Source of the DNA: an uncultured Candidatus Bathyarchaeia archaeon
GTDB taxonomy: Archaea > Thermoproteota > Bathyarchaeia > TCS64
Assembly: GCA_964529745.1 (NCBI GenBank)
Contig: CAZGZR010000001.1
Coordinates: 5,590 to 69,589 of the forward strand
DNA length: 64,000 nucleotides
Direction of reading: 5' to 3'
Made by a program: the position numbers and the translations under genes. Positions 8,886 through 60,975 of this stretch are shown here, in pieces; the first letter of the stretch is position 1; every line of letters begins with the position of its first letter. The notes beneath the pieces are model-generated. The model did no database searches. It was not told the DNA's origin and saw only the letters and a program-made list of their open reading frames with translations.

Positions 8886-8920
8886 TTGTATTCTTTTACA
8901 CTAATATTACTGACATAATA

Positions 8921-34394: not shown

Positions 34395-34511
34395 AAAGTG
34401 TTTTTTCGAAAATATGCTAATAATGTTAAATTTTAATCTCTAAATTTTACTAAGAAATCGTAATCAGGCTAATTACCGGTCTGAAAATCCTTTTTAAATA
34501 TAAAGGGGTGT

Positions 34512-35485: not shown

Positions 35486-35569
35486 ACCAGATTTTAAGAA
35501 GGGTGTTTTAAAAATCTAAAGCCATGGTTTTTATATCTTTAATTTTTTTACCAAAAAAAAATTGGGGAT

Positions 35570-36205: not shown

Positions 36206-36414
36206 TTTTCATCATTTATTTCTGAAATAACATGTTATTTAAACCTGAAAAACGAGTTAAGATGAAATTAATTTTTTACACTATTTTATAATAATATGAT
36301 ATGTGGGCTATGCCTTTAATGGAGATTTTAGAGGTCTCGTGGTGACCTTGGTTGGCTGTGTTCTTGCTCAATAAAGCTTATTTCTACATATGTATATGTA
36401 GATGTAGATGAGTT

Positions 36415-36657
36415 TTGACGTCTAAAACGATATCGGTGTCGGAGGACGCCTACGAGCTCCTCAAGAAGATGAAGCTCAAGGGAGAGAGCTTCACGGAGAC
36501 CATCAGGAGGCTCGCCAGACGCCGTAGGCTCGCTGACTGCGCCGGGCTGTGGTCGGACGCCTCCGAGGAGGAGATGGAGGCTTACTGGGGCGGTATATCC
36601 GAGTTGAGGAGGAGGGCCGCGGAGTCCATGGAGATGCGCCGCGTTGAAGGTAGTTGA
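36415..36657 (+). CDS. vapB: VapB-type antitoxin
   Basis: MTSKTISVSEDAYELLKKMKLKGESFTETIRRL, the UPF0330/VapB antitoxin pattern. Confidence 0.6.
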   Translation: MTSKTISVSEDAYELLKKMKLKGESFTETIRRLARRRRLADCAGLWSDASEEEMEAYWGGISELRRRAAESMEMRRVEGS

Positions 36658-37042
36658 CACGACGTTCCTGGTTTGCCTCCTCCGCGAAGATTCATCGACC
36701 CTCGGCAAGGCTGAGGAGCTGGACGGTGAGGGCGGCGCCGCCACTACCGTCGTAAACGTCTATGAGGCATGTTATGGGGTTTACAGGGCCATGTCGGATC
36801 CGCCGAGGAGGATGGAGGCCTTAGAGCGTCTCGTCGCGAACTTGGAGGTGTTGGATCTGGACTATGAGGCCGCTGTGAGGGCCGCCGAGATATCGGGGAC
36901 GCTGGACAAGGAGGGGAGGGGGATCGATCCCTTCGACTCGCTCATCGCGGGGATCGCGCTCACCAGCGGAGCCGAGGCTCTGGTCACCAGAAACGTTACC
37001 CACTTCGAGAGGGTGCAGGGTCTGAAGGTAGAAGAACATTAA
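36644..37042 (+). CDS. vapC: PIN-domain toxin VapC
   Basis: TTG start. VVDTTFLV N-terminal and FDSLIAGIAL C-terminal PIN motifs. Overlaps vapB by 14 nt. Confidence 0.7.
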   Translation: MKVVDTTFLVCLLREDSSTLGKAEELDGEGGAATTVVNVYEACYGVYRAMSDPPRRMEALERLVANLEVLDLDYEAAVRAAEISGTLDKEGRGIDPFDSLIAGIALTSGAEALVTRNVTHFERVQGLKVEEH

Positions 37043-37165
37043 ACGAAGGCCGCTCATCCATAGCTTTGGCTCCGCCCAGGCATGGTACCCCGTTTCACCT
37101 GGTTTTCTGGGTGATTGTGGGGTGAAAGACTCATAGGCTTTCATTCATCCTTGGAAGAAGTCTTT

Positions 37166-37177
37166 AGCTTTATTATC
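37166..37177 (+). promoter_or_regulatory. TATA-like element AGCTTTATTATC upstream of paralog copy 2
   Basis: Same sequence and spacing as 34077-34088. Confidence 0.4.
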
Positions 37178-37198
37178 CGAGATTCCGTGGATCCTGTT

Positions 37199-37486
37199 AT
37201 GGAGGATCTCCGCGGAAAGGCCCTCAAGGCTTATGATGCGCTCTTCAATTACCGACGGACCGTTGAGATCGATGGCAGGGTCTATCGCTTGGAGCATACT
37301 TCGGTCAAGGGGCTGCGTAGGTTCAGTGTGGGGGGTTATGATTTCATCGAGCAGAACCCGGACAAGGGCAGCAGGTGGGGTGAGATGGCGAGGGAGGGCC
37401 ACCGGATATTGTGGGTGATGAGGGGTGGTAGTTATCTGGCTCAGGTGCGTGACGGTGTGTTCCATGATTTCAGGGAACGGGGCTAG
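37199..37486 (+). CDS. small conserved hypothetical protein, duplicated family (copy 2)
   Basis: MEDLRGKALKAYDALFNYRRTVEIDGRVYRLEHTS...FIEQNPDKGSRWGEMAREGHRILWVMRGGSYLAQVRDGVFHDF. Confidence 0.5.
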   Translation: MEDLRGKALKAYDALFNYRRTVEIDGRVYRLEHTSVKGLRRFSVGGYDFIEQNPDKGSRWGEMAREGHRILWVMRGGSYLAQVRDGVFHDFRERG

Positions 37487-37505
37487 AGGCGAGTTTGCGT
37501 TTTTC

Positions 37506-37538
37506 CTTGTAACTGGTTACTTGTTACAAGCGTTTTTT
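37506..37538 (+). terminator. hairpin (stem CTTGTAAC/GTTACAAG, loop TGGTTACTT) followed by T6; start of repeat copy 2
   Basis: Identical loop to 23341-23373. Two compensatory base-pair changes in the stem. Confidence 0.45.
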
Positions 37539-37680
37539 CCGGGTTGGGTGGTTATTGGTTTTGTGTTGGTTTCATTGGTTTTTGGTTTGTTTATTGTGTT
37601 TTCCTTGGTTTTGTGGCTGGGTTTGGTTAAATTTTTTTCGTCATGATCTTTCCTTTTTTTAGCGGCAGTTGGATGTGTTT
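37539..37680 (+). repeat. G+T-rich repeat body, copy 2
   Basis: GT-rich 140 nt sharing motifs with 23374-23530. The only ORF across it is a hydrophobic low-complexity artefact. Confidence 0.4.
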
Positions 37681-37835
37681 GGTTGGGGGAGGCCCGGATG
37701 CCTGGCGGGGTGACGTGGGTGCTGGGTTTTCCTGGGAGGCTTGTCTGGTTTTGGAGAGAAGTTTATGCTTGTAGCTTGTCGTTTATCCATTCGACGTATC
37801 TTTCTGCGTCTCTGACGGCCGTGGCTGCCCCTTTT

Positions 37836-38165
37836 TTACTGATGAGCCGCTCCTCGTACTCGGAGGCGTTCTTTATGCCTAGCAGCCTGCTGAGCTGTCT
37901 GCTCTTGTTTCTCAGCTCGTTTTTTAGGGAGGTTTAGGGTTTGGAGCAGCGAGAGGGCGTCTTCGTGTCGTTGTCCCACGTGTCTTACGCCTATTATGAA
38001 TACGGTTAAGGCGTCTGTGGCGCTTTTTCCGCTGTGGACCGCGTTTATCGTGGCGGCGTTCCGCCGTCTGGCTTGCAGGGATTCTTTCGCAGTCTCCAGG
38101 TTTTCCCTTGCTTTCTGGAGGTAGTTGCGGTATAGCTCCTTGTTCACCTTCCTCGTCTTGGACAC
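37836..38165 (-). CDS. HEPN domain protein (putative toxin of HEPN/MNT pair)
   Basis: 109 aa. GVRHVGQRHEDAL contains the R-x4-6-H HEPN motif. Confidence 0.55.
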   Translation of the reverse strand: MSKTRKVNKELYRNYLQKARENLETAKESLQARRRNAATINAVHSGKSATDALTVFIIGVRHVGQRHEDALSLLQTLNLPKKRAEKQEQTAQQAARHKERLRVRGAAHQ

Positions 38166-38171
38166 GTCCTG

Positions 38172-38504
38172 TCACCGGTCTCTGCTGCAGATGGGGATGT
38201 TGTTTTCACGTATTTCTTTTACTAGCTGCTGATTGTCCATGTTTTCTTCTTCGGGGGTCAGTATGTAGGGGTTTATGGGGTTACCGTATTTTTTGCTGCA
38301 GTGTATCTGCAGCTCCGTGAGCCTTTCCTCTGTTTCCTCTCTTTCATGGGTTATTACGAGGAGGTCGATGTCGCTTCGCGGCTCTTCCCGGCCTGTGGCT
38401 ACGCTTCCGAATATCTTGGCTGACTCTACTGCGGGGAGGGGGCAGAGGCGCTGCTTGATGTCTTCTCGGAGTTTTTGGACGGTTTTTTCCTCGTAGTCGA
38501 ACAT
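38172..38504 (-). CDS. minimal nucleotidyltransferase (MNT, putative antitoxin)
   Basis: 110 aa. FGSVATGREEPRSDIDLLV (GS...DxD). Sits 6 nt upstream of the HEPN gene. Confidence 0.7.
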   Translation of the reverse strand: MFDYEEKTVQKLREDIKQRLCPLPAVESAKIFGSVATGREEPRSDIDLLVITHEREETEERLTELQIHCSKKYGNPINPYILTPEEENMDNQQLVKEIRENNIPICSRDR

Positions 38505-43578: not shown

Positions 43579-44044
43579 ACGTCTCGTATCCGCGTATATC
43601 CAAGCCGCTAAACATCACAGACAAGACCCTACACACATGCATCGAGAGCGTAACGAGCATAACCGTAGTTTTTGTATCAACATGATGCACAACAATGCAT
43701 CACCCAATGTAAATACAAATGTATTAAAAACTCTATAAAAAAATGACGTTATTAACATGAATAGATGAATCTTCTTTGTTATTTTTTTAATATTAAGGAA
43801 AATAAAGGTAAAGCGGGTCATCTTCTTTTTGCGATGGCATATAACGCAATATTGGTTCGTAAAGAGGACGATTACCGTTAGATTGTGCGAAATAAGAACA
43901 TTTCCATATTCAATAATATAAAAAAGGCGAAATCAGTGTCCTAACCAGAGTCAAGTCTCCTCGAGACAACGGATCATGCTCTCATATGGTATTCATTGGC
44001 TTAGGAATTTCAATCAACCAATGCTTGGAGTGGAAGCATGACAG

Positions 44045-44533
44045 ATGATGGCGTTAAGTCGTTTATCAAAAAAAGAGAAAGCGTACATCGGTGTGGCGGA
44101 GCAGTGCACCCAGTGCGGTAAATGCTCCAGCGGGTGCCCAGCCGCCAGATACCTCGAGCTGAGGCCACGGAGGATCGCGTTGATGGCCCAGAGAGACCTC
44201 GTCGAGGAGCTTCTCGGCTCCGACATAATATGGATGTGTACCCAGTGTCATCAATGCATGGAACGCTGCCCACGGGAGATAACCCCCTACGACATCATCA
44301 TATACCTCCAGAACCTGTCGGTGCTAAAAGGCTACGACTACCCCAAGGATCTTGACATACTGTTCGCATCCATCAAGAGGTACGGAGCCATTCAGCTACC
44401 CCAGGAGATATTCGACAGGGAATTCGAGAACTACGAGAGGAGTGACCTTAACCTGCCCGACCTCGAAGGCCCAGCCGACATCGAGGGGTTCCTAAAGGGA
44501 TTGACCAAGGTTCTGGGGGAGTCGAGGCGTTGA
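44045..44533 (+). CDS. hdrC: heterodisulfide reductase subunit C
   Basis: Two ferredoxin-type motifs, CTQCGKCSSGCP and CTQCHQCMERCP. Confidence 0.85.
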   Translation: MMALSRLSKKEKAYIGVAEQCTQCGKCSSGCPAARYLELRPRRIALMAQRDLVEELLGSDIIWMCTQCHQCMERCPREITPYDIIIYLQNLSVLKGYDYPKDLDILFASIKRYGAIQLPQEIFDREFENYERSDLNLPDLEGPADIEGFLKGLTKVLGESRR

Positions 44534-45405
44534 GATACGCGCTGTTCCTAGGCTGCTGGATACACACCCAGCAGTACGGCTACGAGATGTCCACCAGAAG
44601 AACCCTGCCCAGGCTAGGGGTGGAGCTCCACGACCCCGAGGGCTTCAGCTGCTGCGGCTACCCCCTGAGGAGCTTCAACGACTCGGCGTGGTTCTACCTC
44701 TCGGCGAGAAACCTCGCGATAGCCGAGAGGGACGGCCTCGACATACTCCCACTCTGCAACGGCTGCTACGCTTCCCTGAACGAAGTGAAGCACTACCTAG
44801 ACTCCGACGAGGAGTTCAAAGACTACATCAACGAGGCTCTCAGCAACGAGGGCTTGGAGTATAGAGGAGGCAAAAGGGTCAGGCACATACTGGAGGTTCT
44901 TCACGAGGACATCGGAGTTGAAAGGATAGAAGGAGAGATAGAAAAGCCGTTATCGGGTCTAAGCTTCGCCACGCACTGCGGCTGCCACGCGTTGAGGCCC
45001 AGCGACTTCAAGTACACCGACGACCCCGAGGACCCTAGGCTGCTGGACGAGGTGACCCAGGCTCTGGGAGCCGAGACGCGCTACTACCCGGAGAAGATGG
45101 ACTGCTGCGGAGCGACCCTGGTACTAAGCAACTACGAGGCGGCTTTCAAGCTGACGGGCTACAAGATCCAAGCCATCCAGAGACGGGGCTTCGATGGACT
45201 CGTGACCAACTGCCCGTTCTGCCTCAAGATGTTCGACTCAAGGCAGGAAGCCGCTGGCAAGATCATACACGACGAGGGTCTGAGCCTCCCAGTCTTCTAC
45301 ATCACCCAGCTCCTGGGACTAGCCCTAGGCATGGACGCGTTCGAGCTGGGTCTCGATTTCAACATGAGTCCGGTTGATGAAGTGATCGATAAAATTGGAG
45401 GCTGA
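44530..45405 (+). CDS. hdrB: heterodisulfide reductase subunit B (two CCG Cys-rich domains)
   Basis: 291 aa. CCGYP and CCGATL cysteine-rich motifs. ATGA-type overlap with hdrC. Confidence 0.85.
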   Translation: MRYALFLGCWIHTQQYGYEMSTRRTLPRLGVELHDPEGFSCCGYPLRSFNDSAWFYLSARNLAIAERDGLDILPLCNGCYASLNEVKHYLDSDEEFKDYINEALSNEGLEYRGGKRVRHILEVLHEDIGVERIEGEIEKPLSGLSFATHCGCHALRPSDFKYTDDPEDPRLLDEVTQALGAETRYYPEKMDCCGATLVLSNYEAAFKLTGYKIQAIQRRGFDGLVTNCPFCLKMFDSRQEAAGKIIHDEGLSLPVFYITQLLGLALGMDAFELGLDFNMSPVDEVIDKIGG

Positions 45406-46720
45406 GGCGATGGAGTCATCCGTAGTAGTGATTGGCGGAGGAATAGCCGGAATCCAAGCCTCCCTTGACCTGGCAGACGGCGGCCACAAAGTGTACCTCG
45501 TTGAGAGGACGCCAAGCATAGGGGGCAAGATGGCGCTGCTTGACAAGACCTTCCCGACCCTCGACTGCGCCATCTGCATACTCGCGCCAAAGATGATCGA
45601 GGTATACAGGCATCCCAACATCAGGCTCCTCACCAACTCCACGGTAACCAAGGTCTCCGGGGAAGCCGGGAACTTCGCCGTGAAGGTGACAAGGAAACCC
45701 AGGTACGTTGACGAGGACAAGTGCATAGGCTGCGGCGTATGCGCCCAGAAGTGCCCCGTACGCGTGCCAGACGAGTACCAGATGGGGCTCAGCGACAGGA
45801 AAGCCATCTACCTGCCGTTCCCCCAGTCGGTGCCGCTCGTCTACAGCATCGACCCGGAGCACTGCCTCCACTTGACGCAGGGCGTCTGCGGAGCCTGCGA
45901 GAAGCTCTGCGAAGCAGGAGCCATAGACTACGACCAGAAAGAGGAGACCCTTGAGATAAATGCCTCAGGGATAGTCGTGGCCACGGGGCTTGAGCCCTTC
46001 GATCCCACCATCATCAACGAGTATGGGTACAGGAGGTACAGCGACGTCGTCACCGCCATGGAGTTCGAGCGCATGATAACGGCCACCGGCCCCACCGAGG
46101 GGGAGCTGCTCCGTCCTTCAAACAGCCAGCACCCACATAGCATCACCTTCATCCAGTGCGTCGGCTCCAGAAGCCTGCGTGAGGGATACCCCTACTGCTC
46201 CGCGGTGTGCTGCATGCACGCCACGAAAGAGGCGATGCTAGCGAAGGAGCACGCCCCGGACGTGGAGGCAACCATCTACTACACAGACCTCAGAGCCTTC
46301 GGGAAAGATTTCAGAGAGTTCATAGAGAGGGCGAAGAAAGAGTATGGAGTCAATTACGTCAGGGGTAAGCCGGGAGAGATCAGGGAAGACCCCGAGACCA
46401 AGACGCTTCAATTCTGGTACGAGGACACCCACACCGGCGACGTAAGGCTAGCAGAGACGGACATGATCGTGCTCTGCACGGCCCTCCGCCCGAGCCCTGG
46501 AAACAGGGATCTAGCCGAGACCCTGAAGGTTGATGTCGACGAGTACGGTTTCTTCACCCAGCCAAGGCCCCTCATGGAACCGGTTGGTACGACTCGTGGA
46601 GGCGTCTACGTCTGCGGATTCTGCCAAGGCCCGAAGGACATACCAGACTCCATCGCGGAGGCCAGCGGAGCGGCGTCCATGATATCGGTAATCGCTGCAA
46701 AGAGGAGGGCTGGAGGATGA
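45395..46720 (+). CDS. HdrA-like FAD-dependent oxidoreductase with inserted ferredoxin domain (lacks HdrA N-terminal domain)
   Basis: 441 aa. VVVIGGGIAGIQASLDLA FAD motif. CIGCGVCAQKCPV and CGACEKLCEAGAI [4Fe-4S] motifs. Confidence 0.75.
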   Translation: MEAEAMESSVVVIGGGIAGIQASLDLADGGHKVYLVERTPSIGGKMALLDKTFPTLDCAICILAPKMIEVYRHPNIRLLTNSTVTKVSGEAGNFAVKVTRKPRYVDEDKCIGCGVCAQKCPVRVPDEYQMGLSDRKAIYLPFPQSVPLVYSIDPEHCLHLTQGVCGACEKLCEAGAIDYDQKEETLEINASGIVVATGLEPFDPTIINEYGYRRYSDVVTAMEFERMITATGPTEGELLRPSNSQHPHSITFIQCVGSRSLREGYPYCSAVCCMHATKEAMLAKEHAPDVEATIYYTDLRAFGKDFREFIERAKKEYGVNYVRGKPGEIREDPETKTLQFWYEDTHTGDVRLAETDMIVLCTALRPSPGNRDLAETLKVDVDEYGFFTQPRPLMEPVGTTRGGVYVCGFCQGPKDIPDSIAEASGAASMISVIAAKRRAGG

Positions 46721-48873
46721 GCGAGGAAGAGGCACCCAAGATTGGGGTGTTCCTCTGCCACTGCGGAACCAACATAGCTGGGGTGGTAGACGTGCCCAGC
46801 GTCGCCGAGTACGCCCGCAAGATACCGGGGGTACACTACGTCGAGGAGAATCTCCACACCTGCAGCTCCGAGGGCATCAACCACATCAAGGAGGCCATCG
46901 TGAGGGAAGGGTTGGAGAGGGTCGTCGTAGCCGCGTGCACCCCCCGAACCCACGAACCATTGTTCATGGACGCTGTGGAGGAGGCGGGGCTCAACAGGTA
47001 CCTCTTCCAGATGGTCAACGTACGCGAACACGACTCATGGGTCCACGGGGACAGGGAAGCCGCGACGGCGAAGGCTAAACAACTGGTCCACATGGCCGCG
47101 GCGAAGGCGATGTACCTGGAGCCTGAGGAGAGGAGAAAGATCGATGTCACCCCCACATCCCTCGTGGTGGGGGCCGGCGTGGCCGGGATGACCGCCGCCC
47201 TCGCCTTGGCGGAACAGGGTTTCCAGGTCATATTGGTGGAGAAGGAGAGCGAGCCCGGGGGCCTGGTGAAGAAGCTGCACGACCTGTCTCCGACCCGCCA
47301 AGACGCCGAGGAGTTCCTCGAACCCATGATCGCCGCGGTGCGAAGCAACGACAAGATACAGCTCTACACAGGGTCAAGGGTGGTGGATGTCAGCGGATTC
47401 ATAGGCCATTTCAGCGTGGGGATCCAGACCAACCAGAACCATCTCTCCACCGAGGTGGGCACCATCATCGTGGCCACCGGCGCAGAGGTCTTCGTCCCCG
47501 AAGGATACTATTCCTATGGTGAGACACCCAACATAGTAACACAGCTAGAACTCGAGGAAAAGCTCCGTGAAGGCTCGTTCAATGTTCCAGACCATGTGGC
47601 GTTCATCCAATGCGTGGGCAGCATGGAGGAGAAAAGGAGAACGTACTGCTCCAGAATATGCTGCGGCGTGGCGCTGAAGAACGCCATACGGCTGAAGGAG
47701 CTTAACCCAGACTCGGACATCCACATACTCTACAGGCAGCTTCAGGCATACGGAATAGAGTTAGAGGAACTATACAGGGAGGCCCTAAACAAGGAAGTCA
47801 AGTTCATCAACTATATCCCGGAGAAGCCGCCGGAGGTATCAGCTCAGAGCGGCGCCATCAACCTGAGGGTCTACGACACGCTTAAGGGATCAGAGATAGA
47901 GCTGCAGCCAGGCCTGATCGTCCTCTCCACCCCCCTGGTGCAACATGAGGAGGGGCGAGCCCTGGCTAGGCTGCTGCGGGTCCCGCTGGGCTCAGACGGT
48001 TTCTTCCTCGAGGCGCACCCCAAGATGCGGCCCGTCGACTTCTCGTCTGACGGCATCTACCTCTGTGGGACGGCTCACGCCCCCAAGAACATAGCGGAGA
48101 GCGTCACCCAGGGATACGCCGCGGCCTCACGGGCGGCAATACCCATGAGGCTTGGCGAGATCAGCGTAGACGCCGTCACCGCGGTCCTCGACCCGGAACT
48201 CTGCGTAGGATGCGGGGCGTGCGCCAGTGGATGCCCCTTCGACGCCATAGAGTGGTTGCCTTCGGGGAAGCCCCACGTGGTCGAGGCCGCGTGCAAAGGC
48301 TGCGGCGTCTGCACCGTGGAGTGCCCCGTCGGCGCCATGCAGCTGAGATACTTCAAAGACAGCCAGCTGATGCCCGCCGTCAAAGCCCTCACGCAGCAGG
48401 AACCATGGATGGAGGCAGAGGACTCCTCGAACCCGACGGTGCTTGTCTTCGCGTGCAGGTGGTGCAGCTACGCCGCAGCCGACTTCGCAGGCGTGATGAG
48501 GCTAAGCTACCCGGCCAACGTCCGAATACTCATGGTGCCATGCTCCGGCAGGGTCGACTTCAGACACATCTACGAGGGACTCAGCAGAGGCGCCGACGGA
48601 GTAATAGTGACAGGATGCCTCAAGGAGCAGTGCCACTACATAGACGGCAACCTCCTCGCCGAGAGGAGGGTGGAGGTAGCGAAGAAGGCCTTAGAGGTCC
48701 TGGGCATAAGCGGCGACAGGCTGGAGATGTTCTTCTGCAGCGCCGGTATGCCCAGGGAGTTCGCGGAGTACATGCGGAGCTTCACCGAGAGAATCAAGCG
48801 GCTTGGGAAGATCGAACGCGAGACCGTCCGGGCGTTCAAGGAAGTAGAGTTGGCGACAGCGGCTGGAGGGTGA
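46717..48873 (+). CDS. hdrA: heterodisulfide reductase subunit A fused to MvhD (methyl-viologen-reducing hydrogenase delta subunit domain)
   Basis: 718 aa. N-terminal IGVFLCHCGTNIAG. FAD motif LVVGAGVAGMTAAL. Ferredoxin CVGCGACASGCP...CKGCGVCTVECP. C-terminal approx. 140 aa (VLVFACRWCSYAAADFAG...VMVPCSGRVD) is MvhD-like. Confidence 0.85.
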   Translation: MSEEEAPKIGVFLCHCGTNIAGVVDVPSVAEYARKIPGVHYVEENLHTCSSEGINHIKEAIVREGLERVVVAACTPRTHEPLFMDAVEEAGLNRYLFQMVNVREHDSWVHGDREAATAKAKQLVHMAAAKAMYLEPEERRKIDVTPTSLVVGAGVAGMTAALALAEQGFQVILVEKESEPGGLVKKLHDLSPTRQDAEEFLEPMIAAVRSNDKIQLYTGSRVVDVSGFIGHFSVGIQTNQNHLSTEVGTIIVATGAEVFVPEGYYSYGETPNIVTQLELEEKLREGSFNVPDHVAFIQCVGSMEEKRRTYCSRICCGVALKNAIRLKELNPDSDIHILYRQLQAYGIELEELYREALNKEVKFINYIPEKPPEVSAQSGAINLRVYDTLKGSEIELQPGLIVLSTPLVQHEEGRALARLLRVPLGSDGFFLEAHPKMRPVDFSSDGIYLCGTAHAPKNIAESVTQGYAAASRAAIPMRLGEISVDAVTAVLDPELCVGCGACASGCPFDAIEWLPSGKPHVVEAACKGCGVCTVECPVGAMQLRYFKDSQLMPAVKALTQQEPWMEAEDSSNPTVLVFACRWCSYAAADFAGVMRLSYPANVRILMVPCSGRVDFRHIYEGLSRGADGVIVTGCLKEQCHYIDGNLLAERRVEVAKKALEVLGISGDRLEMFFCSAGMPREFAEYMRSFTERIKRLGKIERETVRAFKEVELATAAGG

Positions 48874-48877
48874 CGGC

Positions 48878-49699
48878 GTGTACAGGATAACAAAGAAACA
48901 TGATATACCGCCAAACATCAAGATGTTCAAGGTATACGCACCAGCCGTGTCGAGGAAGGCGGAGCCAGGACAGTTCGTAATAATCAGAAGCCACGAGAGA
49001 GGCGAGCGAATACCAATTACGATAGCGGGGAAAGACCCCAATGAAGGTACAGTCACAATATACTTCGCCGAGGTAGGCGTCTCATCCAAGGAGCTTGGAG
49101 CCCTAGGTGAAGGAGACACGATACTCAACTTCTCTGGCCCCCTCGGAAACGCCATTACTGTAGAGAAGTATGGAGAGGTTCTCTGCGTCGGTGGAGGAGT
49201 ATTCCAGGGAGCTAACCACTATCTGTCAAGGAGGCTCAGCGAGGCAGGTAACGAGGTAACCAACATCATCTGTGTCCCAAGCGAAGACCACTTGTTTCTC
49301 TTGGACGAGATAAAGAACGCAAGTAAGAACGTGCTAATAGCCATCGACGAAGCTGAAAACGGAGCCGGCTTACCGGAGTTATTGGAGGGAGCGTTCAAGG
49401 AAACTCACTTTGACAGAGTCTTCACGTTTGGACCCACCTCCATGCAGAAGCTGGTAGCAGAGACAACGAGGCCGCTGAACATCCCCACCAGGGTGAACCT
49501 CTTCCCTATAATGGTGGACGGCACAGGGATGTGCGGAGCGTGCAGGGTGACGGTGGGCGGAGCGACTCGCTTCGCCTGCATAGACGGCCCAGAGTTCGAC
49601 GGCCACCAGGTCGACTTCGACGAGCTCATCTCCCGGATGAGGTACTACACCGCCCAGGAGAAGATCGCCATGGTTCTCCAGGAAAGGAGGATCGTTTGA
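48878..49699 (+). CDS. NfnA/SudB-like ferredoxin:NAD(P) oxidoreductase small subunit (FNR-like with C-terminal [2Fe-2S])
   Basis: 273 aa. FAD/NAD FNR-like fold. C-terminal cysteines GMCGACRV...FACIDGPEF. Confidence 0.7.
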   Translation: MYRITKKHDIPPNIKMFKVYAPAVSRKAEPGQFVIIRSHERGERIPITIAGKDPNEGTVTIYFAEVGVSSKELGALGEGDTILNFSGPLGNAITVEKYGEVLCVGGGVFQGANHYLSRRLSEAGNEVTNIICVPSEDHLFLLDEIKNASKNVLIAIDEAENGAGLPELLEGAFKETHFDRVFTFGPTSMQKLVAETTRPLNIPTRVNLFPIMVDGTGMCGACRVTVGGATRFACIDGPEFDGHQVDFDELISRMRYYTAQEKIAMVLQERRIV

Positions 49700-51099
49700 T
49701 GGCCTTCGACGTCCCACAGGTGGAGATGCCAAAGCAGACACCGGAGGAGCGCGTAAACAACTTCGACGAGGTCGCGCTCGGCTACACCGAGGAGCAGGCC
49801 ATCCAAGAGGCGTCCAGATGCCTCGGCTGCAAGAACCCTCAGTGCATCAAGGGATGCCCGGTCGACGTCGACATCCCGAGTTTCATACAACTCATCAAGA
49901 CAGGAAACTTCGTCGAGGCAGCCACCAAGATCAAGGAAACCAACGCCTTGCCAGCCATATGCGGCCGCGTTTGCCCGCAGGAGAACCAATGCCAGAAACA
50001 CTGCGTCCTCGGCGTAAGAGGCGAGCCTTTGGCAATCGGCAGACTTGAGCGGTTCGCCGCAGACTACGAAAGAAAGCACGGAGAACCCTCAAAACCTGTT
50101 GAAGGCAAAAAACTTGGCCGCGTGGCCGTCGTAGGAGCGGGACCCGCTGGCTTAACGGTGACAGCCGAGCTTCTGATGAAAGGCTGCGACGTGGAGGTCT
50201 TCGAGTCCCTCCACGAGGCGGGTGGAGTGCTGATGTACGGCATACCGGAGTTCAGGCTGCCCAAAGCCATAGTCCAAGCGGAGGTAGACTATGTTAAGAG
50301 CCTGGGGGCAAAGATACACCTCGACGCCACAATAGGAAGACTCCACACAGTTTCAGAGCTTTTCGAGAGAGGCTTCCAAGCGATCTTCATAGGGAGCGGC
50401 GCGGGGCTCCCCAGGTTCATGAACCTACCCGGAGAGAACCTCAAGGGGATCTACTCGGCCAACGAGTTCCTGATCAGGACCAACTTGATGAAGGCGTACA
50501 GGTTCCCAGAGTATCGGACCCCCATCACGGTGGGCAGGAACGTGGCGGTCATCGGCGGCGGGAACGTGGCCATGGACTCGGCTCGGTGTGCCAAGAGATT
50601 GGGCGCCGAGGAAGTCTACATAGTGTACCGGAGGGGCAGAGAAGAGCTCCCCGCGAGGGAGGAGGAGGTAGAGAACGCCGAGGAGGAGGGCATAATATTC
50701 AGGTTCCTCACAAACCCAGTCGGGTTCATCGGCGACGACAGAGGCTATGTCACTCAAATGGAGTGTATCAGCATGAAGCTGGGGGAGCCAGATGAATCTG
50801 GAAGGCGACGGCCCATAGCTGTGGAGGATTCAGAGTTCCTCATGGATGTAGACAACGTGGTGGTGGCGATAGGGCAGACTCCTAACCCAATCATACAGCA
50901 GACCACTAAAGGATTAGAGGCAACTAGATGGGGCACCATAGTCGTTGACGAGGATACGATGAAGACGAGTATCGACGGCGTATACGCCGGCGGGGACGTG
51001 GTGAGCGGCGCAGCAACTGTGATAAGCGCTATGGGAGCAGGCAAAAAGGCTGCTAGAGCCATCCTCGAGTATCTGAACAAGTCTCACTCGGCGACGTAA
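49699..51099 (+). CDS. NfnB/SudA/GltD-like NAD(P)H oxidoreductase (glutamate synthase small-subunit family)
   Basis: Start at the ATG overlapping the nfnA TGA (ATGA). N-terminal [4Fe-4S] pair (CLGCKNPQCIKGCP; CGRVCPQENQCQKHC). Two Rossmann motifs (VAVVGAGPAG; VAVIGGGNVAMD). Confidence 0.8.
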   Translation: MAFDVPQVEMPKQTPEERVNNFDEVALGYTEEQAIQEASRCLGCKNPQCIKGCPVDVDIPSFIQLIKTGNFVEAATKIKETNALPAICGRVCPQENQCQKHCVLGVRGEPLAIGRLERFAADYERKHGEPSKPVEGKKLGRVAVVGAGPAGLTVTAELLMKGCDVEVFESLHEAGGVLMYGIPEFRLPKAIVQAEVDYVKSLGAKIHLDATIGRLHTVSELFERGFQAIFIGSGAGLPRFMNLPGENLKGIYSANEFLIRTNLMKAYRFPEYRTPITVGRNVAVIGGGNVAMDSARCAKRLGAEEVYIVYRRGREELPAREEEVENAEEEGIIFRFLTNPVGFIGDDRGYVTQMECISMKLGEPDESGRRRPIAVEDSEFLMDVDNVVVAIGQTPNPIIQQTTKGLEATRWGTIVVDEDTMKTSIDGVYAGGDVVSGAATVISAMGAGKKAARAILEYLNKSHSAT

Positions 51100-51341
51100 C
51101 AGGTCGTCGTGGATATTATGCCGTATAGATTTCTAATCTTGTCAAGCACAATGTCCTGCAGCAACTCTATGTCGTCGATCTCGACTTCAACATACATGTC
51201 ATAAGGCCCGTAAATGTAGTGGGCTTCCTTGACCCCTTCTATGCTTAGTATCTCTTTCTTTAGCATATTCTCTATCCTTGAGTCTACTCTAAGAAAAACC
51301 AGAGCCCTATGAGGGTCTAACTGGTTAAGGCCGTCACGCAT
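51084..51341 (-). CDS. stand-alone Lrp/AsnC C-terminal ligand-binding (RAM) domain protein
   Basis: 85 aa. ...HYIYGPYDMYVEVEIDDIELLQDIVLDKI... typical of the AsnC-type effector domain. No HTH. Confidence 0.55.
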   Translation of the reverse strand: MRDGLNQLDPHRALVFLRVDSRIENMLKKEILSIEGVKEAHYIYGPYDMYVEVEIDDIELLQDIVLDKIRNLYGIISTTTCYVAE

Positions 51342-51550: not shown

Positions 51551-52033
51551 ATGATCCACGTTCTCTTTAGAGAGAAGAGAAAGAAATTGCGGATAGATCG
51601 ACTGGATCTACAGATACTTAGATCTTTAAGTAGAGATGGCCGCAAACCATTTAGAGAAATCGCTCGAGAGCTAGATGTAAGTGACGCTACTGTACGGAAA
51701 CGCGTCAGACGGATGCAGAAAGACGAGATCATAAGACAATTCCATGTGCTAATCAACTATGACAAGATAGGTAACTTCATCAAGGCTTTCATAGGGCTTA
51801 ACGTAAGCCCCGTGAAAATACCAATTATTGTTGAAGAACTCATGAAGTACCCAGACATTCAAGTAATATACAGAACCACGGGGGGGTGGGACATCTTCGT
51901 CGAAGTCGTTTTTAAAGATATGCGGGAACTTAAATGGTTTATAGAGAATAAGCTGAATTTCGAAGGTATAATCAGTACCGATGTAAACGTGGTAATAACA
52001 CCATACAAACGGTGTCCATGCACAAACATCTAG
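51551..52033 (+). CDS. Lrp/AsnC family transcriptional regulator
   Basis: 160 aa. N-terminal HTH (LDLQILRSLSRDGRKPFREIARELDVSDATVRKRV) plus C-terminal RAM domain. Confidence 0.8.
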   Translation: MIHVLFREKRKKLRIDRLDLQILRSLSRDGRKPFREIARELDVSDATVRKRVRRMQKDEIIRQFHVLINYDKIGNFIKAFIGLNVSPVKIPIIVEELMKYPDIQVIYRTTGGWDIFVEVVFKDMRELKWFIENKLNFEGIISTDVNVVITPYKRCPCTNI

Positions 52034-56238: not shown

Positions 56239-56700
56239 ATGAGCGAGAAAAAGAGGCTTCTCATAGTATGCTCCAAGGGAACGCTCGACATGGCCTTCCC
56301 GCCCTTCATGATGGCGACCACTGCGGCCTCGATGGGCTGGGACGTTCACCTATACTTCACCTTCTGGGGTATGGACATTATAACGAACAGCAAGGCGTTG
56401 AAGATGTCACCGGTGGGGAACCCGTCACTGGGCATACCCAACATCGTCGGCATCATCCCCGGCATGACGGCCGTCGCGACCTGGATGATGAAGAGGAAGA
56501 TGCGTGAAAGCCACATGCCTACGCTGGAGTCCCTCATAGACATGGCGAAACAAGCCGGCGTCAAGTTCCACGCCTGTTCACCGACCATGAAGCTGGCCGG
56601 CATCACGAAAGAGGACCTCATCCCACAGTGTGACGACATCATCGGCGCGGCCACGTTCCTGGACCTGGCGGGAGACGACGCGGTGACCCTCTTCATCTAG
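56239..56700 (+). CDS. DsrE/DsrF-like (YchN-like) sulfur-relay family protein
   Basis: 153 aa. LLIVCSKGTLDMAFPPFMMATTAASMGWDVHLYFTFWGMD, typical DsrE-like fold signature. Confidence 0.65.
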   Translation: MSEKKRLLIVCSKGTLDMAFPPFMMATTAASMGWDVHLYFTFWGMDIITNSKALKMSPVGNPSLGIPNIVGIIPGMTAVATWMMKRKMRESHMPTLESLIDMAKQAGVKFHACSPTMKLAGITKEDLIPQCDDIIGAATFLDLAGDDAVTLFI

Positions 56701-56743
56701 CCACTGAGCCCAAATCAGCGGGTGTACCGAGGAAAGCACATGC

Positions 56744-57829
56744 TCAATACTTGGGGAAAGACCCATCCACCGACTCGGACCAGCCGTGGATACCCCCCTC
56801 GAGGCTCCTCAGCTTCCTGAACCCGGCGTCCTGAAGCACCCTCAACGCTCTGCAGCTTCGCACCCCGGTCCTGCAGTAAAGAACTATGTCATCACCTTTG
56901 TCCAGCTCACCCAGCCTAGCCGGCAGCTCAGGCTCCGGTATGAGCCGGGCGCCGGGGAGGCGGCAGATCTCCCACTCGAAAGGGTCTCTGACGTCGATCA
57001 GGACGAGGTTCGGGTTATCGCTGATCTCGGCCGACAGCTCGTTCGGCGAGACCACCCACTCATCGCCGAGCGCCCCGACACGGCTCCCGGAGACACCACA
57101 AAACCGCTCGTAGTCAACCAGCTCATCGATGGAAGGGTCCTCCCCGCAGATGGGGCACCCGGGATCCCTCATGACCTCCACCTCCTTGACACGCATGGTT
57201 AACGCGTTGTAGAGAAGCAGGCGCCCTATGAGGGGCTCCCCGACCCCCAGTATCAGCTTGATGGCCTCCGTCGCCTGGATGACGCCCATCACCCCCGGCA
57301 AAACCCCAAGCACCCCGGCTTCGGCGCAGCTCGGGACCGTCCCCGGCGGCGGGGGCTCCGGGTAGAGACACCTGTAGCATGGGCCTTTCTCCGCGTAGAA
57401 AACGGATGCCTGCCCTTCGAACCGGAAGACGCTGGCGTACACGTTCGGTTTCCCGAGAAGCACACACACGTCGTTGACGAGGTACCTCGCAGGGAAGTTA
57501 TCCGTCCCATCGGCCACGACGTCGTAGTCCTTGCATATCTGCGCCGCGTTGGCCGAGCTGAACGCCTCCTCATGTCTAACGACTTCGATCTCGGGGTTGA
57601 GAGCCCTCAGCCTGGCTGCCGCCGCTTCGAGCTTGGGCTCCCCCACATCGTCTGAACAGTACAGGATCTGGCGTTGAAGGTTACTATAATCGACTACATC
57701 GAAATCGACGAGCCCGATCCTGCCGACGCCGGCCGCGGCCAAGTACATTGATAGGGGAGAACCCAGGCCCCCAGCTCCTACGCATAACACGCTGGCCTCC
57801 TTGAGCCTCCTCTGCCCGTCCACCCCCAC
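56744..57829 (-). CDS. MoeB/ThiF/MoeZ-type E1-like adenylyltransferase fused to a C-terminal rhodanese domain
   Basis: 361 aa, GTG start. VLCVGAGGLGSP nucleotide motif. C-x2-C...C-x2-C zinc site. Rhodanese with active-site CRTGVRS. In frame upstream the sequence continues QEIRRYSRHLLLPGVG, so the true N-terminus is probably about 20 aa longer. Confidence 0.8.
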   Translation of the reverse strand: MGVDGQRRLKEASVLCVGAGGLGSPLSMYLAAAGVGRIGLVDFDVVDYSNLQRQILYCSDDVGEPKLEAAAARLRALNPEIEVVRHEEAFSSANAAQICKDYDVVADGTDNFPARYLVNDVCVLLGKPNVYASVFRFEGQASVFYAEKGPCYRCLYPEPPPPGTVPSCAEAGVLGVLPGVMGVIQATEAIKLILGVGEPLIGRLLLYNALTMRVKEVEVMRDPGCPICGEDPSIDELVDYERFCGVSGSRVGALGDEWVVSPNELSAEISDNPNLVLIDVRDPFEWEICRLPGARLIPEPELPARLGELDKGDDIVLYCRTGVRSCRALRVLQDAGFRKLRSLEGGIHGWSESVDGSFPKY

Positions 57830-57897
57830 CCCTGGGAGCAGAAGATGACGGCTATACCTCCTTATCTCCTGGTTCGAAAACGCGGCTGTGAAAACGG

Positions 57898-58176
57898 TCA
57901 GCCTCCGCTCACCGCCGGAATCAAAGAGACCTCGTCGTTAGAATAGAGCTCGGTGGACAGCTTCTTCAGGAAACGAAAGTCCCTTCCATTCACGTAGACG
58001 TTTATGAAGCGCCTCGGGTTTCCGTCCTGGTCGTAGAGTTTCTCGCGGAAGCCTTCCCCGTATCGGGCTGAAAGCGCCTCAAGGGCCCCGGAGACGGTGG
58101 CCGCCTCCACGGAGGTGGCCGCAGCGCCCGCGACGGATGCCAGGCTCCCGTACAGTAGAACGGTTACAGACGCCAT
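57898..58176 (-). CDS. ThiS/MoaD-like sulfur carrier protein (C-terminal GG)
   Basis: 92 aa ending ...IPAVSGG. Beta-grasp-sized. Confidence 0.7.
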   Translation of the reverse strand: MASVTVLLYGSLASVAGAAATSVEAATVSGALEALSARYGEGFREKLYDQDGNPRRFINVYVNGRDFRFLKKLSTELYSNDEVSLIPAVSGG

Positions 58177-59465
58177 CGCTCGGCCTCCAGGCTCGTTTCC
58201 CCTCTCTGGGCTCCGGTTGAAGAGTATGGGGGTGTCTCCACGTCCGCGTCTGCCTTGTTAAGTAACTCCATCAACGCGTTCAACGTTGGCTCGATGAGGG
58301 CTGGCTTGTTTAGAGACCGCTGGATGGTGTCCGCCGCCTTGAACCCGTTCCCGGTGACGGCACAGACCACCTTCTCGTCCGCCTCGAAGTAGCCCTCCTC
58401 GGCGAGCCTCTTCAGGACCGCTATCGTCACGCCTCCCGCGGGCTCGGTGAAGACGCCCTCCTTCTCCGCGACGAGCTTGATGGCCTCGAGTATCTCCTCG
58501 TCGGAGACGGCCTCCACCGTGCCGCCGGTGGCCCTGGCGTTCCTCAGCACGTAGTACCCGTCACCGGGATCGCCTATCGCCAGGCTCTTGGCCAAGGTGT
58601 GTGGGTGCTCGATGGGCCTTACGTCGTCGAGCCCGGCTTTAAACGCGTCAGCGATGGGTGCACAGCCCTCTGCCTGGGCGCCGATGAGCCTGGTGGGTTT
58701 GTCCTCAATGAGACCCACCTTCTTGAACTGCTCTAGTCCCCTATGGACGGCGCAGAAAAGCGCCCCGCTTCCCAAGGGTATGATGAAGCTGTCCGGCGCC
58801 TCCCAGCCCAGCTGTTCGCACACCTCGAAGGCGAGGGTCTTGGAGCCCTCCACGTAGTAGCTTCTTAGGTTGATGTTAGCGAAGGCCCAGCCGTAGTGTT
58901 CAGCCGCCTGCGCCGCCAGCCTGTTGGCCTGGTCATAGGTGCCGTTCACGGCGATGATGCGGGCACCGTAGACCGAGGCCTGAAGAACCTTGTTTAACTC
59001 GGTGTCGGATGGGACGAAGATGTAGCAAGGCAGCTCCGCCTTAGCCGCGTGAGCCGCAACGCTCGCCGCCAGGTTGCCTGTCGAGGGGCATCCCACCGCC
59101 ACCGCCCCGAGCTCTCTCGCCTTCGAGACGGCCACCGACGCGGGTCTATCCTTGAACGAGTTGGTGGGGTTAACCGTGTCGTCCTTGATGTAGAGGTTGT
59201 TCAAGCCCAGCTGCTTCCCGAGGTTAGCGGCCTTATGCAGTGTTGATAGACCCGTTCCCAGGTCTACTGCCGACTCGTAGCTGTTCAGGGGCAGAAGCTC
59301 CCTGTACCTCCAAATGTTTCTAGGTCGCCGTGATATCTCCTCCCTCGTCACCCTGATTCCATCTAGGTCGTATGATACCTCGAGGGGGGCGAAGCAGTTA
59401 TCACAGGCGTGTATGAGTTTCTGGGGGAAAGTTGCGCCGCATTCACGGCACACAAGCCCTTTCAC
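58164..59465 (-). CDS. threonine-synthase-like PLP enzyme with N-terminal zinc ribbon
   Basis: 433 aa. CRECG...CDNC N-terminal ribbon. PLP lysine motif NPTNSFKDR. Fold-type II PLP architecture. Confidence 0.75.
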   Translation of the reverse strand: MKGLVCRECGATFPQKLIHACDNCFAPLEVSYDLDGIRVTREEISRRPRNIWRYRELLPLNSYESAVDLGTGLSTLHKAANLGKQLGLNNLYIKDDTVNPTNSFKDRPASVAVSKARELGAVAVGCPSTGNLAASVAAHAAKAELPCYIFVPSDTELNKVLQASVYGARIIAVNGTYDQANRLAAQAAEHYGWAFANINLRSYYVEGSKTLAFEVCEQLGWEAPDSFIIPLGSGALFCAVHRGLEQFKKVGLIEDKPTRLIGAQAEGCAPIADAFKAGLDDVRPIEHPHTLAKSLAIGDPGDGYYVLRNARATGGTVEAVSDEEILEAIKLVAEKEGVFTEPAGGVTIAVLKRLAEEGYFEADEKVVCAVTGNGFKAADTIQRSLNKPALIEPTLNALMELLNKADADVETPPYSSTGAQRGETSLEAERWRL

Positions 59466-59620
59466 ATATCGATTGAGTTATTTACGCCTCCTGTGTACCC
59501 ACACAATCCATCATTACTATATTAATATCTTATTGTCAATTCAATTAGCCTAGGAATAAACCGGGCTGCCTACTAAGCCGTATCCGTTTGGCGTGGACAC
59601 ACCTCCCTGCTCGAACGGCT

Positions 59621-60787: not shown

Positions 60788-60975
60788 ACACACATACTCC
60801 ATCAGAGAATCAATGGCTACCCGCATAGTGAGGGACGTAATTACACCCATCAGTAAAACCATACAATAAAAACCTACATACACGGCACACCAACGCTTCG
60901 ACTCAATGCATGCGGTCAACATATGTATGCCCGGTGCGCGGAGACTTTATCTCACCAATCCGTCAAGAATAATCC

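Follow-up and report, generated by a model that had tools for sequence, protein, structure and literature searches.

A 64-kb stretch of DNA from an uncultured Candidatus Bathyarchaeia archaeon (contig CAZGZR010000001.1, positions 5,590 to 69,589 of the forward strand), referred to here as the window, contains six co-directional genes on the + strand at window positions 44045-51099: hdrC, hdrB, hdrAs, hdrAL/mvhD, nfnA and nfnB. These genes specify a heterodisulfide reductase (Hdr) in which the flavoprotein HdrA is divided between a short paralogue (HdrAs) and a long paralogue (HdrAL) fused to an MvhD domain, followed directly by a complete NfnAB pair. The domains of the two HdrA paralogues complement each other, and the proteins would form an asymmetric heterodimer of a kind that is widespread in archaea and bacteria. 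The attachment of nfnAB to this pair is conserved in close relatives, and a plausible but tentative explanation for it is that the cluster encodes an NADPH-linked system that reduces ferredoxin and a disulfide, with MvhD as the wire between Nfn and Hdr. Alternatively, the cluster could encode two separate enzymes that share little more than their regulation, and this possibility is nearly as likely.

Organization of the gene cluster

Open reading frames (ORFs) were checked on the + strand in window coordinates and assigned to families by Pfam and NCBIfam profile scans, which gave E-values far beyond chance for all six. The cluster and the region preceding it are organized as follows.

43579..44044, strand not applicable: presumed promoter region, ~470 bp, AT-rich and non-coding, 5' of hdrC, with no ORF of at least 80 aa
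44045..44533, + strand: hdrC-like gene, 162 aa (Pfam Fer4_8, 6.8e-12)
44530..45405, + strand: hdrB, 291 aa (PF02754 matched twice, 8.5e-27)
45395..46720, + strand: hdrAs, the short hdrA paralogue, 441 aa (489 bits against residues 146-567 of 5ODC_A)
46717..48873, + strand: hdrAL, the long hdrA paralogue fused to mvhD, 718 aa (aligns to 8RVU_a)
48878..49699, + strand: nfnA (NfnS), 273 aa (PRK06222, 325 bits)
49699..51099, + strand: nfnB (NfnL), 466 aa (TIGR01316, 596 bits)

A previous reading of this stretch, made from the letters alone and called here the sequence-only reading, had described six tightly coupled genes at these positions. The spacing of the junctions, which ranges from -11 to +4 nt, agrees with that description, as does a GGAGG-like sequence 5' of each of the four internal starts inspected. 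The same reading placed 4-nt ATGA overlaps at hdrC/hdrB and nfnA/nfnB. Overlaps do exist at both junctions, but the first reads TTGA, with TTG as the start codon of hdrB, and the second is a 1-nt overlap, TGATG, with AGGAGG located 5' of nfnB; the ATGA overlap is found instead at hdrAs/hdrAL. Between hdrAL and nfnA there is a gap of 4 nt, and nfnA starts with GTG preceded by GGAGGG. The hdrB/hdrAs junction is an 11-nt overlap if hdrAs starts at the TTG at 45395, or a 4-nt gap if it starts at the ATG at 45410. The latter has GGAGG just 5' of it and may be the actual start, in which case HdrAs is 436 aa long.

The region 5' of hdrC includes A-T-rich runs such as AATAATATAAAAAAGG, ~120 nt 5' of the hdrC ATG, and is presumably the promoter region of the cluster. 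On the other side, nfnB is followed by a small convergent gene and then by a separate promoter-like AT-rich stretch. Given these two boundaries and the tight junctions between them, the six genes look like one transcription unit, and nfnAB does not look like a transcription unit of its own in the window, a possibility that the sequence-only reading had raised. A scan with promoter and terminator models detected no signal inside the operon, and its terminator-like matches were fewer than in shuffled sequences, but the models are bacterial and uninformative for an archaeon.

Complementary halves of HdrA

HdrAs aligns continuously with residues 146-567 of Methanothermococcus thermolithotrophicus HdrA (5ODC_A) and with positions 138-558 of the NCBIfam model NF040770. 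It consists of a thioredoxin-reductase-like flavin adenine dinucleotide (FAD) domain and an inserted ferredoxin domain with two [4Fe-4S] clusters, and the continuous alignment leaves it without an inserted GltD/NfnB-like domain. The sequence-only reading was correct that this protein lacks the N-terminal domain of HdrA, but the C-terminal ferredoxin domain is missing as well. Retained in HdrAs are a C58xxC61 pair equivalent to Cys194/Cys197 of 5ODC_A, the four cysteines of the HA4 cluster, and a lysine that corresponds to Lys409. The inserted ferredoxin domain, which is the ferredoxin-reducing output in methanogenic HdrA, carries the cysteines C110/113/116/120 and C157/165/168/172, and those of the first motif are kept in 108 of 108 HdrAs homologues. 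The second paralogue had been described as a full HdrA with MvhD at its C-terminus. The MvhD domain is indeed present, but the protein is not a full HdrA since it aligns with residues 10-245 and 323-653 of 8RVU_a and skips residues 246-322, which form the inserted ferredoxin domain. In the region of Cys194/Cys197, HdrAL reads RQDAEEF and has no cysteines. Its domains are an N-terminal cluster (C14, C16, C49, C74), an FAD domain, a C-terminal ferredoxin domain with two [4Fe-4S] clusters, and the MvhD domain with a [2Fe-2S] cluster, which scores ~100-109 bits against the MvhD chains of 9SW2, 9SFI, 7BKB and 5ODC. The positions of the two domains that distinguish the paralogues are as follows.

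45692..45934, + strand: inserted ferredoxin domain of HdrAs, ~residues 100-180, aligned to ~237-315 of 5ODC_A
48430..48816, + strand: MvhD domain of HdrAL, ~residues 572-700, an electron-transfer adaptor (PF02662 at residues 575-697, 157 bits, 2.1e-46)

The alignments further show that both paralogues keep the HA4 cysteines (C386, C399, C403, C404) and the Lys409 equivalent. For both, the best NCBIfam model is NF040770 (HdrA2 of Methanosarcina acetivorans), and their scores of 696 and 568 bits lie below its cut-off of 1100. Judged from these domains, HdrAs and HdrAL together would form an asymmetric heterodimer that rebuilds one complete copy of the electron wiring that is present twice in the methanogen HdrA homodimer. 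By analogy with BamE of class II benzoyl-CoA reductase (below), HdrAs probably carries the bifurcating FAD, an assignment made with reserve because both paralogues keep the lysine. Tandem or fused HdrA proteins from the anaerobic methane-oxidizing archaea known as ANME, where Cys197 is missing from the copy that has the N-terminal domain and the other copy shows the reverse, have been read as a symmetry-breaking heterodimer (Chadwick et al. 2022, PMC9012536). By cryo-electron microscopy, BamE of class II benzoyl-CoA reductase was seen to be a fused HdrA dimer in which a single FAD bifurcates and the equivalent pair, Cys59-Cys62, takes part in electron transfer (preprint 10.64898/2026.04.10.717634).

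The frequency of this arrangement was examined in a family survey of 97 loci (L001-L098 as fetched, less L095, which had no match). A genome scan with alignment contributed mostly distant bacterial relatives, which served for the heterodimer statistics and not for the analysis of Nfn adjacency, and a metagenome scan for close relatives contributed 10 loci. The survey contains 116 HdrAL-type genes, 101 of which have enough upstream sequence to be judged, and an HdrAs-type gene lies directly upstream in 98 of these 101. The two genes are joined in frame without a stop codon in 71 cases, as in the Geothermarchaeales protein P0117, whose 1159 aa equal 441 + 718. The pair is found in Bathyarchaeia, Thermoplasmata, Promethearchaeota, Desulfobacterota, Chloroflexota, Nitrospirota, Planctomycetota and other groups. 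Owing to this regular upstream position, the many fusions and the spread over many phyla, the tandem is to be regarded as the normal state of an old, widespread HdrA sub-family and not, as the sequence-only reading had it, as an unusual feature. The division of motifs is equally regular: the CxxC/U pair is present in 108 of 108 HdrAs-type genes, while the Cys194/197 pair is absent from 115 of 120 HdrAL-type genes, 118 of which keep the four N-terminal cysteines.

The second position of the CxxC pair, aligned to C61 of HdrAs, is an in-frame TGA in 41 of the 108 HdrAs-type genes, all in bacterial loci among L009-L085. This TGA presumably encodes selenocysteine, and its occurrence at the Cys197-equivalent underlines that the position is redox-active.

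The NfnAB pair and other potential electron donors

The last two genes had been described as an NfnAB/SudAB-like pair, and the comparison with characterized proteins bears this out. NfnA is a PyrK-like subunit for FAD and NAD(H) with the [2Fe-2S] site of one aspartate and three cysteines (DGTGMCGAC...C234). Its PRK06222 score of 325 bits exceeds the cut-off of 220, and it scores 246 bits against Thermotoga maritima NfnA (4YLF_A, with DGTGMCGACRV...FAC aligned) and 240 bits against NfnI-S of Pyrococcus furiosus. NfnB is GltD-like, with two [4Fe-4S] clusters (C41/44/49/53, and C88/92/98/102 plus the glutamate of PQE), an FAD domain and a GGGNVA NADPH-type fold. It passes the TIGR01316 cut-off of 472 with 596 bits and scores 558 bits against T. 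maritima NfnB (4YLF_B), 519 against P. furiosus NfnI-L and 485 against 5VJ7_A, compared with 290 bits against a true GltD (6S6S_G). With all its cluster ligands in place, the pair is, as far as its sequence tells, a canonical Nfn and a genuine NADPH-type module. NfnAB exchanges NADP(H) at the flavin of NfnB, NAD(H) at the flavin of NfnA, and ferredoxin at the distal [4Fe-4S] cluster of NfnB, which is the sole one-electron port of the enzyme.

Other candidates for an electron donor were sought by Pfam scans of the great majority of those window ORFs that reach 150 aa, together with smaller flanking ORFs; everything within ~8 kb of the cluster was included. Among the scanned ORFs of the 64-kb window there was no gene for a hydrogenase or a formate dehydrogenase, no mcr and no Wood-Ljungdahl gene. 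As to the hydrogenase this agrees with the sequence-only reading, which had seen no MvhA/MvhG beside the cluster. Nor did these ORFs include genes for coenzyme M (CoM), coenzyme B (CoB) or methanogenesis, a GltB-type gene (Glu_synthase, GXGXG or GATase), or apr genes, and no other electron-donor module was detected in the operon or within 8 kb of it.

HdrB and HdrC

The HdrC-like protein contains two CX2CX2CX3C motifs, at residues 21-31 and 65-75, for the two [4Fe-4S] clusters that had been predicted. It scores 66 bits against the HdrC chains of 8RVV/8RVU and 82 bits with TIGR03290, below the cut-off of 160. HdrB likewise has the expected two CCG domains, which accommodate two non-cubane [4Fe-4S] clusters, and scores 267 bits with TIGR03288, below the cut-off of 345. 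It aligns with 5ODC_B at 234 bits, and since all ten ligand cysteines (C9, C41, C42, C76, C79, C152, C192, C193, C228, C231) align with those of 5ODC_B, the disulfide-reducing site of HdrB is predicted to be intact. The substrate is unlikely to be CoM-S-S-CoB, the heterodisulfide of the two coenzymes, because HdrA, HdrB and HdrC each score far short of the NCBIfam equivalog cut-offs and the lineage is Bathyarchaeia-like. Of the two options in the sequence-only reading, a CoM-S-S-CoB-like substrate or another thiol disulfide, the first thus finds little favor.

A resemblance to QmoAB, which also combines a short and a long HdrA with an MvhD-like end, was considered and dropped as QmoC and Apr features are absent. 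The QmoC model NF038018 matches only at positions 18-111 of 360, with 60 bits against a cut-off of 300.

Conservation of the hdr-nfn link

The closest HdrAL homologues are 54-93% identical to HdrAL of the window, and those that are named come nearly always from metagenome-assembled genomes (MAGs) of Bathyarchaeia/Bathyarchaeota. Loci whose HdrAL is at least 50% identical and which offer at least 3.5 kb of downstream sequence were taken as close relatives (14 loci), and those of lower identity with enough downstream sequence as distant relatives (76 loci). Downstream of hdrAL, nfnA and nfnB are both present in 12 of the 14 close, Bathyarchaeia-labelled relatives, and they also occur on the short contigs L091, L092 and L094. 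In the 76 distant loci, nfnA was found near hdrAL in none. In the two exceptions among the close relatives (L011 and L077), HdrAs contains an inserted NfnB-like domain.

In L001, L004, L096, L097 and L098, nfnA lies 1-8 nt from hdrAL or overlaps it, and there are minimal modules consisting of hdrAs, hdrAL/mvhD, nfnA and nfnB in which stop and start codons overlap. The identities of NfnA and NfnB drop in step with that of HdrAL, from 93% to 54%, which indicates that the hdr-nfn module is inherited as a unit. Upstream of the module, hdrCB is present in the clade of at least 63% identity, to which the window belongs.

A gene for glutamate dehydrogenase (gdh; ELFV_dehydrog) separates hdrAL/mvhD from nfnAB in at least four lineages of Bathyarchaeia, at the following positions.

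L002/L003/L089 (L002 12322-13668): gdh between hdrAL and nfnAB
L087 9455-10798: gdh between hdrAL and nfnAB
L088 3832-5175: gdh between hdrAL and nfnAB
L092 1058-2401: gdh between hdrAL and nfnAB

This insertion suggests that the module handles NADPH from glutamate oxidation. Two genes of the Lrp/AsnC type are found immediately 3' of the cluster in the window.

51084..51341, - strand: stand-alone Lrp/AsnC ligand-binding (RAM) domain protein (PF01037, 7.6e-11)
51551..52033, + strand: full-length Lrp/AsnC regulator (HTH_AsnC-type, 1.1e-13; AsnC_trans_reg, 5.6e-12)

The RAM-domain gene is convergent with nfnB and overlaps its 3' end by 16 nt, and both genes occupy the same place in L001, L090 and L096. 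The full-length protein is a candidate for an amino-acid-responsive regulator of the cluster. Together, the gdh and Lrp/AsnC context ties the module to NADPH-producing amino-acid catabolism. The entry of electrons from NAD(P)H, as proposed in the sequence-only reading, is supported insofar as NfnAB is a genuine NADPH-type pair (GGGNVA and iron-sulfur ligands) and pyridine nucleotides fit as the relevant substrate, given the adjacency of nfnAB in 12 of 14 close relatives and the presence of gdh inside the cluster in several lineages.

Some relatives show variations on this arrangement. A thioredoxin-reductase-like gene (low-molecular-weight type, with CGVC and GGGNSA motifs) lies directly upstream of hdrAs in L006 (8396-9325) and L097 (5633-6568), and its product could be an alternative disulfide-reducing partner in the clade without adjacent hdrCB. 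HdrAs-type genes with a ~400-aa NfnB/GltD-like insert occur in L087 (4471-7062), L011 (8087-10705), L077 (8090-10741) and ~20 bacterial loci. The insert is placed between residues 153 and 165, within the inserted ferredoxin domain, as in the HdrL/type III HdrA architecture, and in most of these loci it is 34-45% identical to NfnB of the window. Loci of this type number 23 in the survey and are widespread in Desulfobacterota, and they occur in Bathyarchaeia as well. A further variant is found in a Geothermarchaeales MAG (GCA_046757245; L005 8566-16853), where hdrC-hdrB is followed by the fused 1159-aa HdrAs-HdrAL-MvhD gene and then by FrhB-like, GXGXG and Glu_synthase (flavin mononucleotide and Fer4) genes. 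As these genes overlap or are separated by short gaps, the Hdr module in this MAG is apparently co-transcribed with a coenzyme F420-type archaeal glutamate synthase.

Proposed electron flow and alternative explanations

If Nfn and Hdr are wired through MvhD, NADPH, for instance from glutamate dehydrogenase in amino-acid fermentation, would be split at the flavin of NfnB. One electron would pass to NAD+ via NfnA, and the other would be transferred to MvhD and from there to the HdrA flavin, by way of the C-terminal ferredoxin domain and the shared N-terminal cluster. A second bifurcation at the HdrA flavin would send electrons through HdrC and HdrB to a disulfide, probably not CoM-S-S-CoB, and through the inserted ferredoxin domain to ferredoxin. 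In this scheme, the N-terminal cluster, C-terminal ferredoxin domain and MvhD of HdrAL would serve as the input wire, the FAD domain of HdrAs with its CxxC pair and inserted ferredoxin domain as the low-potential output, and HdrC and HdrB as the high-potential output. The contact with the [2Fe-2S] cluster of MvhD would be made by the distal [4Fe-4S] cluster of NfnB, as this is the only one-electron port of NfnAB. NfnAB is placed at the pyridine-nucleotide end of one system since the operon has no other donor module and the MvhD adaptor needs a partner. The scheme builds directly on the gene content, the cofactor ligands, the complementarity of the domains, the tightness of the operon and the conserved adjacency; the Nfn-MvhD contact, the direction of electron flow, the stoichiometry and the substrates we infer. 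There is precedent for parts of it, in that the MvhD-like BamF joins a second bifurcating module to BamE (preprint 10.64898/2026.04.10.717634), and for fused HdrA-NfnB proteins a pair of bifurcation sites and the use of NAD(P)H have been put forward (PMC9012536, PMC12054007, PMC2702500).

A stronger form of this hypothesis, in which all six proteins form one supercomplex, is rather doubtful. In it, Nfn-type and Hdr-type bifurcating flavins would act in series via MvhD, NADPH from amino-acid (glutamate) oxidation would reduce ferredoxin or an acceptor of unusually low potential, and a non-methanogenic disulfide would serve as the sink. Several observations weigh against a physical link between Nfn and Hdr. 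NfnA and NfnB are exactly as long as their free-standing T. maritima counterparts, with no extra domain for docking, and the known fusions place the NfnB-like domain in the inserted ferredoxin domain and not beside MvhD. Two serial bifurcations starting from NADPH would be wasteful of energy, except where they serve an acceptor of very low potential. The gene order also varies: hdrCB is not next to the module in the clade of ~55% identity (L004, L006, L097, L098), gdh splits nfnAB from hdr in five loci so that translational coupling is not constant, and in L088 nfnBA runs on the opposite strand. In L087 and L088 a separate NfnAB is retained although HdrAs already holds an NfnB-like insert, which argues for a function of NfnAB in its own right. 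HdrL-type fusions had been considered as a guide to how NfnB might dock, and this use of them is weakened by the 34-45% identity of most of the inserts and by the two loci that have both the insert and a separate NfnAB.

Alternatively, the cluster could encode two separate but co-regulated soluble enzymes, a free NfnAB and an HdrA2B2C2-like reductase with another donor such as reduced coenzyme F420 (F420H2). Only the ferredoxin pool would then be shared, and the two enzymes would balance NADPH, NADH and ferredoxin during amino-acid fermentation, with Nfn catalyzing 2 NADPH + NAD+ + 2 Fd-ox <-> 2 NADP+ + NADH + 2 Fd-red (Fd, ferredoxin). The high similarity of NfnAB to a biochemically proven Nfn, at 558 and 246 bits against T. 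maritima with no additional domain, speaks for this possibility. It is also favored by the best NCBIfam model of both HdrA paralogues being HdrA2, as HdrA2B2C2 needs no separate donor module (PMC5296606, PMC5861303), and by the relatives in which nfnAB is parted from hdr by gdh, inverted, or maintained beside HdrL-type genes. The very strongly conserved adjacency, including minimal modules with overlapping stop and start codons, speaks against it, and the MvhD adaptor would be left without a partner. The operon moreover has no FrhB-like gene, unlike the Geothermarchaeales locus L005.

Two further explanations have much less to recommend them. It is improbable that the GltD-like protein and its PyrK-like partner are the electron-donating subunit of an archaeal glutamate synthase whose electrons Hdr supplies or tunes. 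Such a function is hinted at by the TIGR01316 match of 596 bits, a model named 'NADPH-dependent glutamate synthase', by the source annotation 'glutamate synthase small chain', by neighbors in relatives that include genes for glutamate dehydrogenase, glutamine synthetase, asparagine synthase and Lrp/AsnC regulators, and by L005, where a fused HdrA-MvhD precedes FrhB, GXGXG and Glu_synthase genes. No GltB-type gene was among the window ORFs scanned, however, and the partner is of the NfnA type with a 1-nt overlap. The pair is nearer to Nfn (558 and 519 bits) than to GltD (290 bits), and a catabolic glutamate dehydrogenase fits the supply of NADPH equally well as nitrogen assimilation. Similarly improbable is a CoM-S-S-CoB reductase of methane or alkane metabolism whose donor, a hydrogenase or formate dehydrogenase, has its genes in another part of the genome. 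A few Bathyarchaeota reportedly carry mcr. The ligand cysteines of HdrB are those of the methanogen enzyme, and in methanogens the Hdr genes often lie apart from the Mvh genes (PMC6085437). Against this stand the scores of HdrA, HdrB and HdrC relative to the equivalog cut-offs (696 vs 1100, 267 vs 345 and 82 vs 160 bits), and no mcr, CoM/CoB or methanogenesis genes were among the scanned window ORFs. The same HdrAs-HdrAL pair also occurs in Desulfobacterota, Chloroflexota, Nitrospirota and other phyla that, to our knowledge, do not use CoM or CoB.

Comparison with known systems

In the MvhADG-HdrABC complex of methanogens, HdrA is one polypeptide that forms a homodimer, whereas in the window its domains are split over proteins of 441 and 718 aa. 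HdrA2B2C2 of M. acetivorans (Yan et al. 2017, PMC5296606) resembles the window system in having a C-terminal MvhD on HdrA, no hydrogenase partner, and the best NCBIfam model. HdrA2, however, is one polypeptide with all domains, accepts electrons from F420H2 and acts on CoM-S-S-CoB, while the window pair is split and scores below the cut-off. The HdrA pairs of ANME (PMC9012536) and 'type II HdrA' (PMC12054007) share the complementary distribution of N-terminal domain, Cys197 and C-terminal ferredoxin domains and the predicted asymmetric heterodimer. They differ in the order of the halves, as the Cys197 half comes first in the window and its fused relatives and the half with the N-terminal domain comes first in ANME fusions. 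Further differences are that MvhD is fused to the long paralogue here, that the host is Bathyarchaeia-like and not a methane oxidizer, and that NfnAB follows.

HdrL ('Hdr/glutamate synthase fusion', Desulfobacterium autotrophicum, PMC2702500; HdrABC/HdrL of Syntrophobacter fumaroxidans, PMC5947623) and the type III HdrA or HdrA-NfnB fusions (PMC9012536, PMC12054007) also combine HdrA and MvhD with a GltD/NfnB-like module. NAD(P)H has been proposed as the donor for these proteins, for which a hydrogenase is absent (PMC2702500, PMC12054007). Their NfnB-like domain lies within the inserted ferredoxin domain and NfnA is lacking, whereas the window has separate NfnA and NfnB downstream of MvhD. Characterized NfnAB enzymes (T. 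maritima 4YLF/4YRY; P. furiosus NfnI 5JCA) match the window pair in subunit sizes, iron-sulfur ligands, FAD/NADPH motifs and adjacency of the two genes, but they are stand-alone heterodimers and the window pair is located inside an hdr operon directly after MvhD.

FlxABCD-HdrABC of Desulfovibrio is reportedly a hydrogenase-free Hdr system for which NADH was proposed as donor. Its likeness to the window lies in the PyrK/NfnA-type FAD subunit FlxA and the MvhD-like adaptor FlxD beside hdrABC. The window has no FlxB/FlxC-type subunits and no separate flxD, and has a complete NfnB and a heterodimeric HdrA instead; MvhD is fused, and HdrC is the only stand-alone iron-sulfur protein of the operon. 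The Flx-Hdr system is listed as 'Hdr/Flox' in a previous study (PMC5947623). Class II benzoyl-CoA reductase, BamBCDEFGHI (10.64898/2026.04.10.717634), comes close to the scheme proposed here in its fused HdrA dimer BamE, the MvhD-like BamF that joins a second module, and an HdrBC-like high-potential branch. Its second, unrelated module, which is bifurcating or confurcating, is HydBC/NuoEF-like and not of the Nfn type, and its low-potential branch ends in a tungsten enzyme and not in free ferredoxin.

All the elements of the cluster, and the overall concept, have been published already, namely heterodimeric HdrA (2022), HdrA with MvhD (HdrA2, 2017), and an NAD(P)H-linked HdrA that uses a GltD/NfnB-like domain (HdrL, 2009; ANME HdrA-NfnB, 2022; type III HdrA, 2025). 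An NADH-linked Flx-Hdr has reportedly been described as well. For a named Hdr-Nfn complex, the searchable literature yielded only the ANME HdrA-NfnB fusions, HdrL and type III HdrA, and a survey of Bathyarchaeia treats hdr and sud/nfn as separate markers only (PMC11631310). Not found there was a description of this operon, that is, of a split HdrA heterodimer with MvhD followed by complete, canonical NfnA and NfnB, which is conserved in a Bathyarchaeia lineage and confined to it, frequently together with gdh.

Other features of the window

Among the proteins encoded in the window is an archaeal TFIIB. Genes for sulfur handling form a group 5-10 kb downstream of the operon, at 56239-60922.

56239-56700, + strand: DsrE-like protein
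56744-57829, - strand: ThiF/MoeB-rhodanese fusion
58164-59465, - strand: pyridoxal phosphate (PLP)-dependent enzyme
59621-60922, - strand: pyridine nucleotide-disulfide oxidoreductase

The DsrE, ThiF-rhodanese and PLP-dependent enzyme genes were considered as a source of the disulfide or a persulfide and were dropped as a conserved feature: in L001, a locus of 90% identity, the genes called downstream of the cluster include no member of these families, nor of the oxidoreductase family. At ~6000-16000 the window contains a low-GC island (30-41%, against ~55-60% elsewhere) with glycosyltransferases, methyltransferases and two ORFs of ~980 aa without a Pfam match (8921-11860 on the - strand and 12878-15829 on the + strand). 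This island looks like a variable or horizontally acquired surface-glycan region. A tRNA at 17097-17172 (- strand) scores 51.6 bits with Rfam, and ARAGORN reports it as 'tRNA-???' with the anticodon 'ga'. Eight small ORFs of 106-217 aa form a run on the - strand at 34500-38500, a region where the GC skew is strong (0.22) and where a single short tandem repeat of 20 nt lies at 37544-37602; the two that were scanned (217 and 211 aa) had no Pfam match.

Implications

In anoxic sediments, few archaea are more abundant than Bathyarchaeia, and ideas about their energy conservation are largely guesswork. A conserved, lineage-specific module of this kind provides a testable hypothesis, namely that NADPH from protein fermentation is used to generate reduced ferredoxin without hydrogen. 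If Nfn and Hdr are not coupled, the cluster amounts to no more than two known enzymes under common regulation. If they are physically coupled, the cluster would represent a new way to stack two flavin bifurcation sites and would bear on the long-open question of what the non-methanogenic homologues of HdrABC reduce. Should the six proteins form a supercomplex, it would be the first Nfn-Hdr double-bifurcation machine, and class II benzoyl-CoA reductase would be the sole earlier example of a complex that unites two bifurcation modules.

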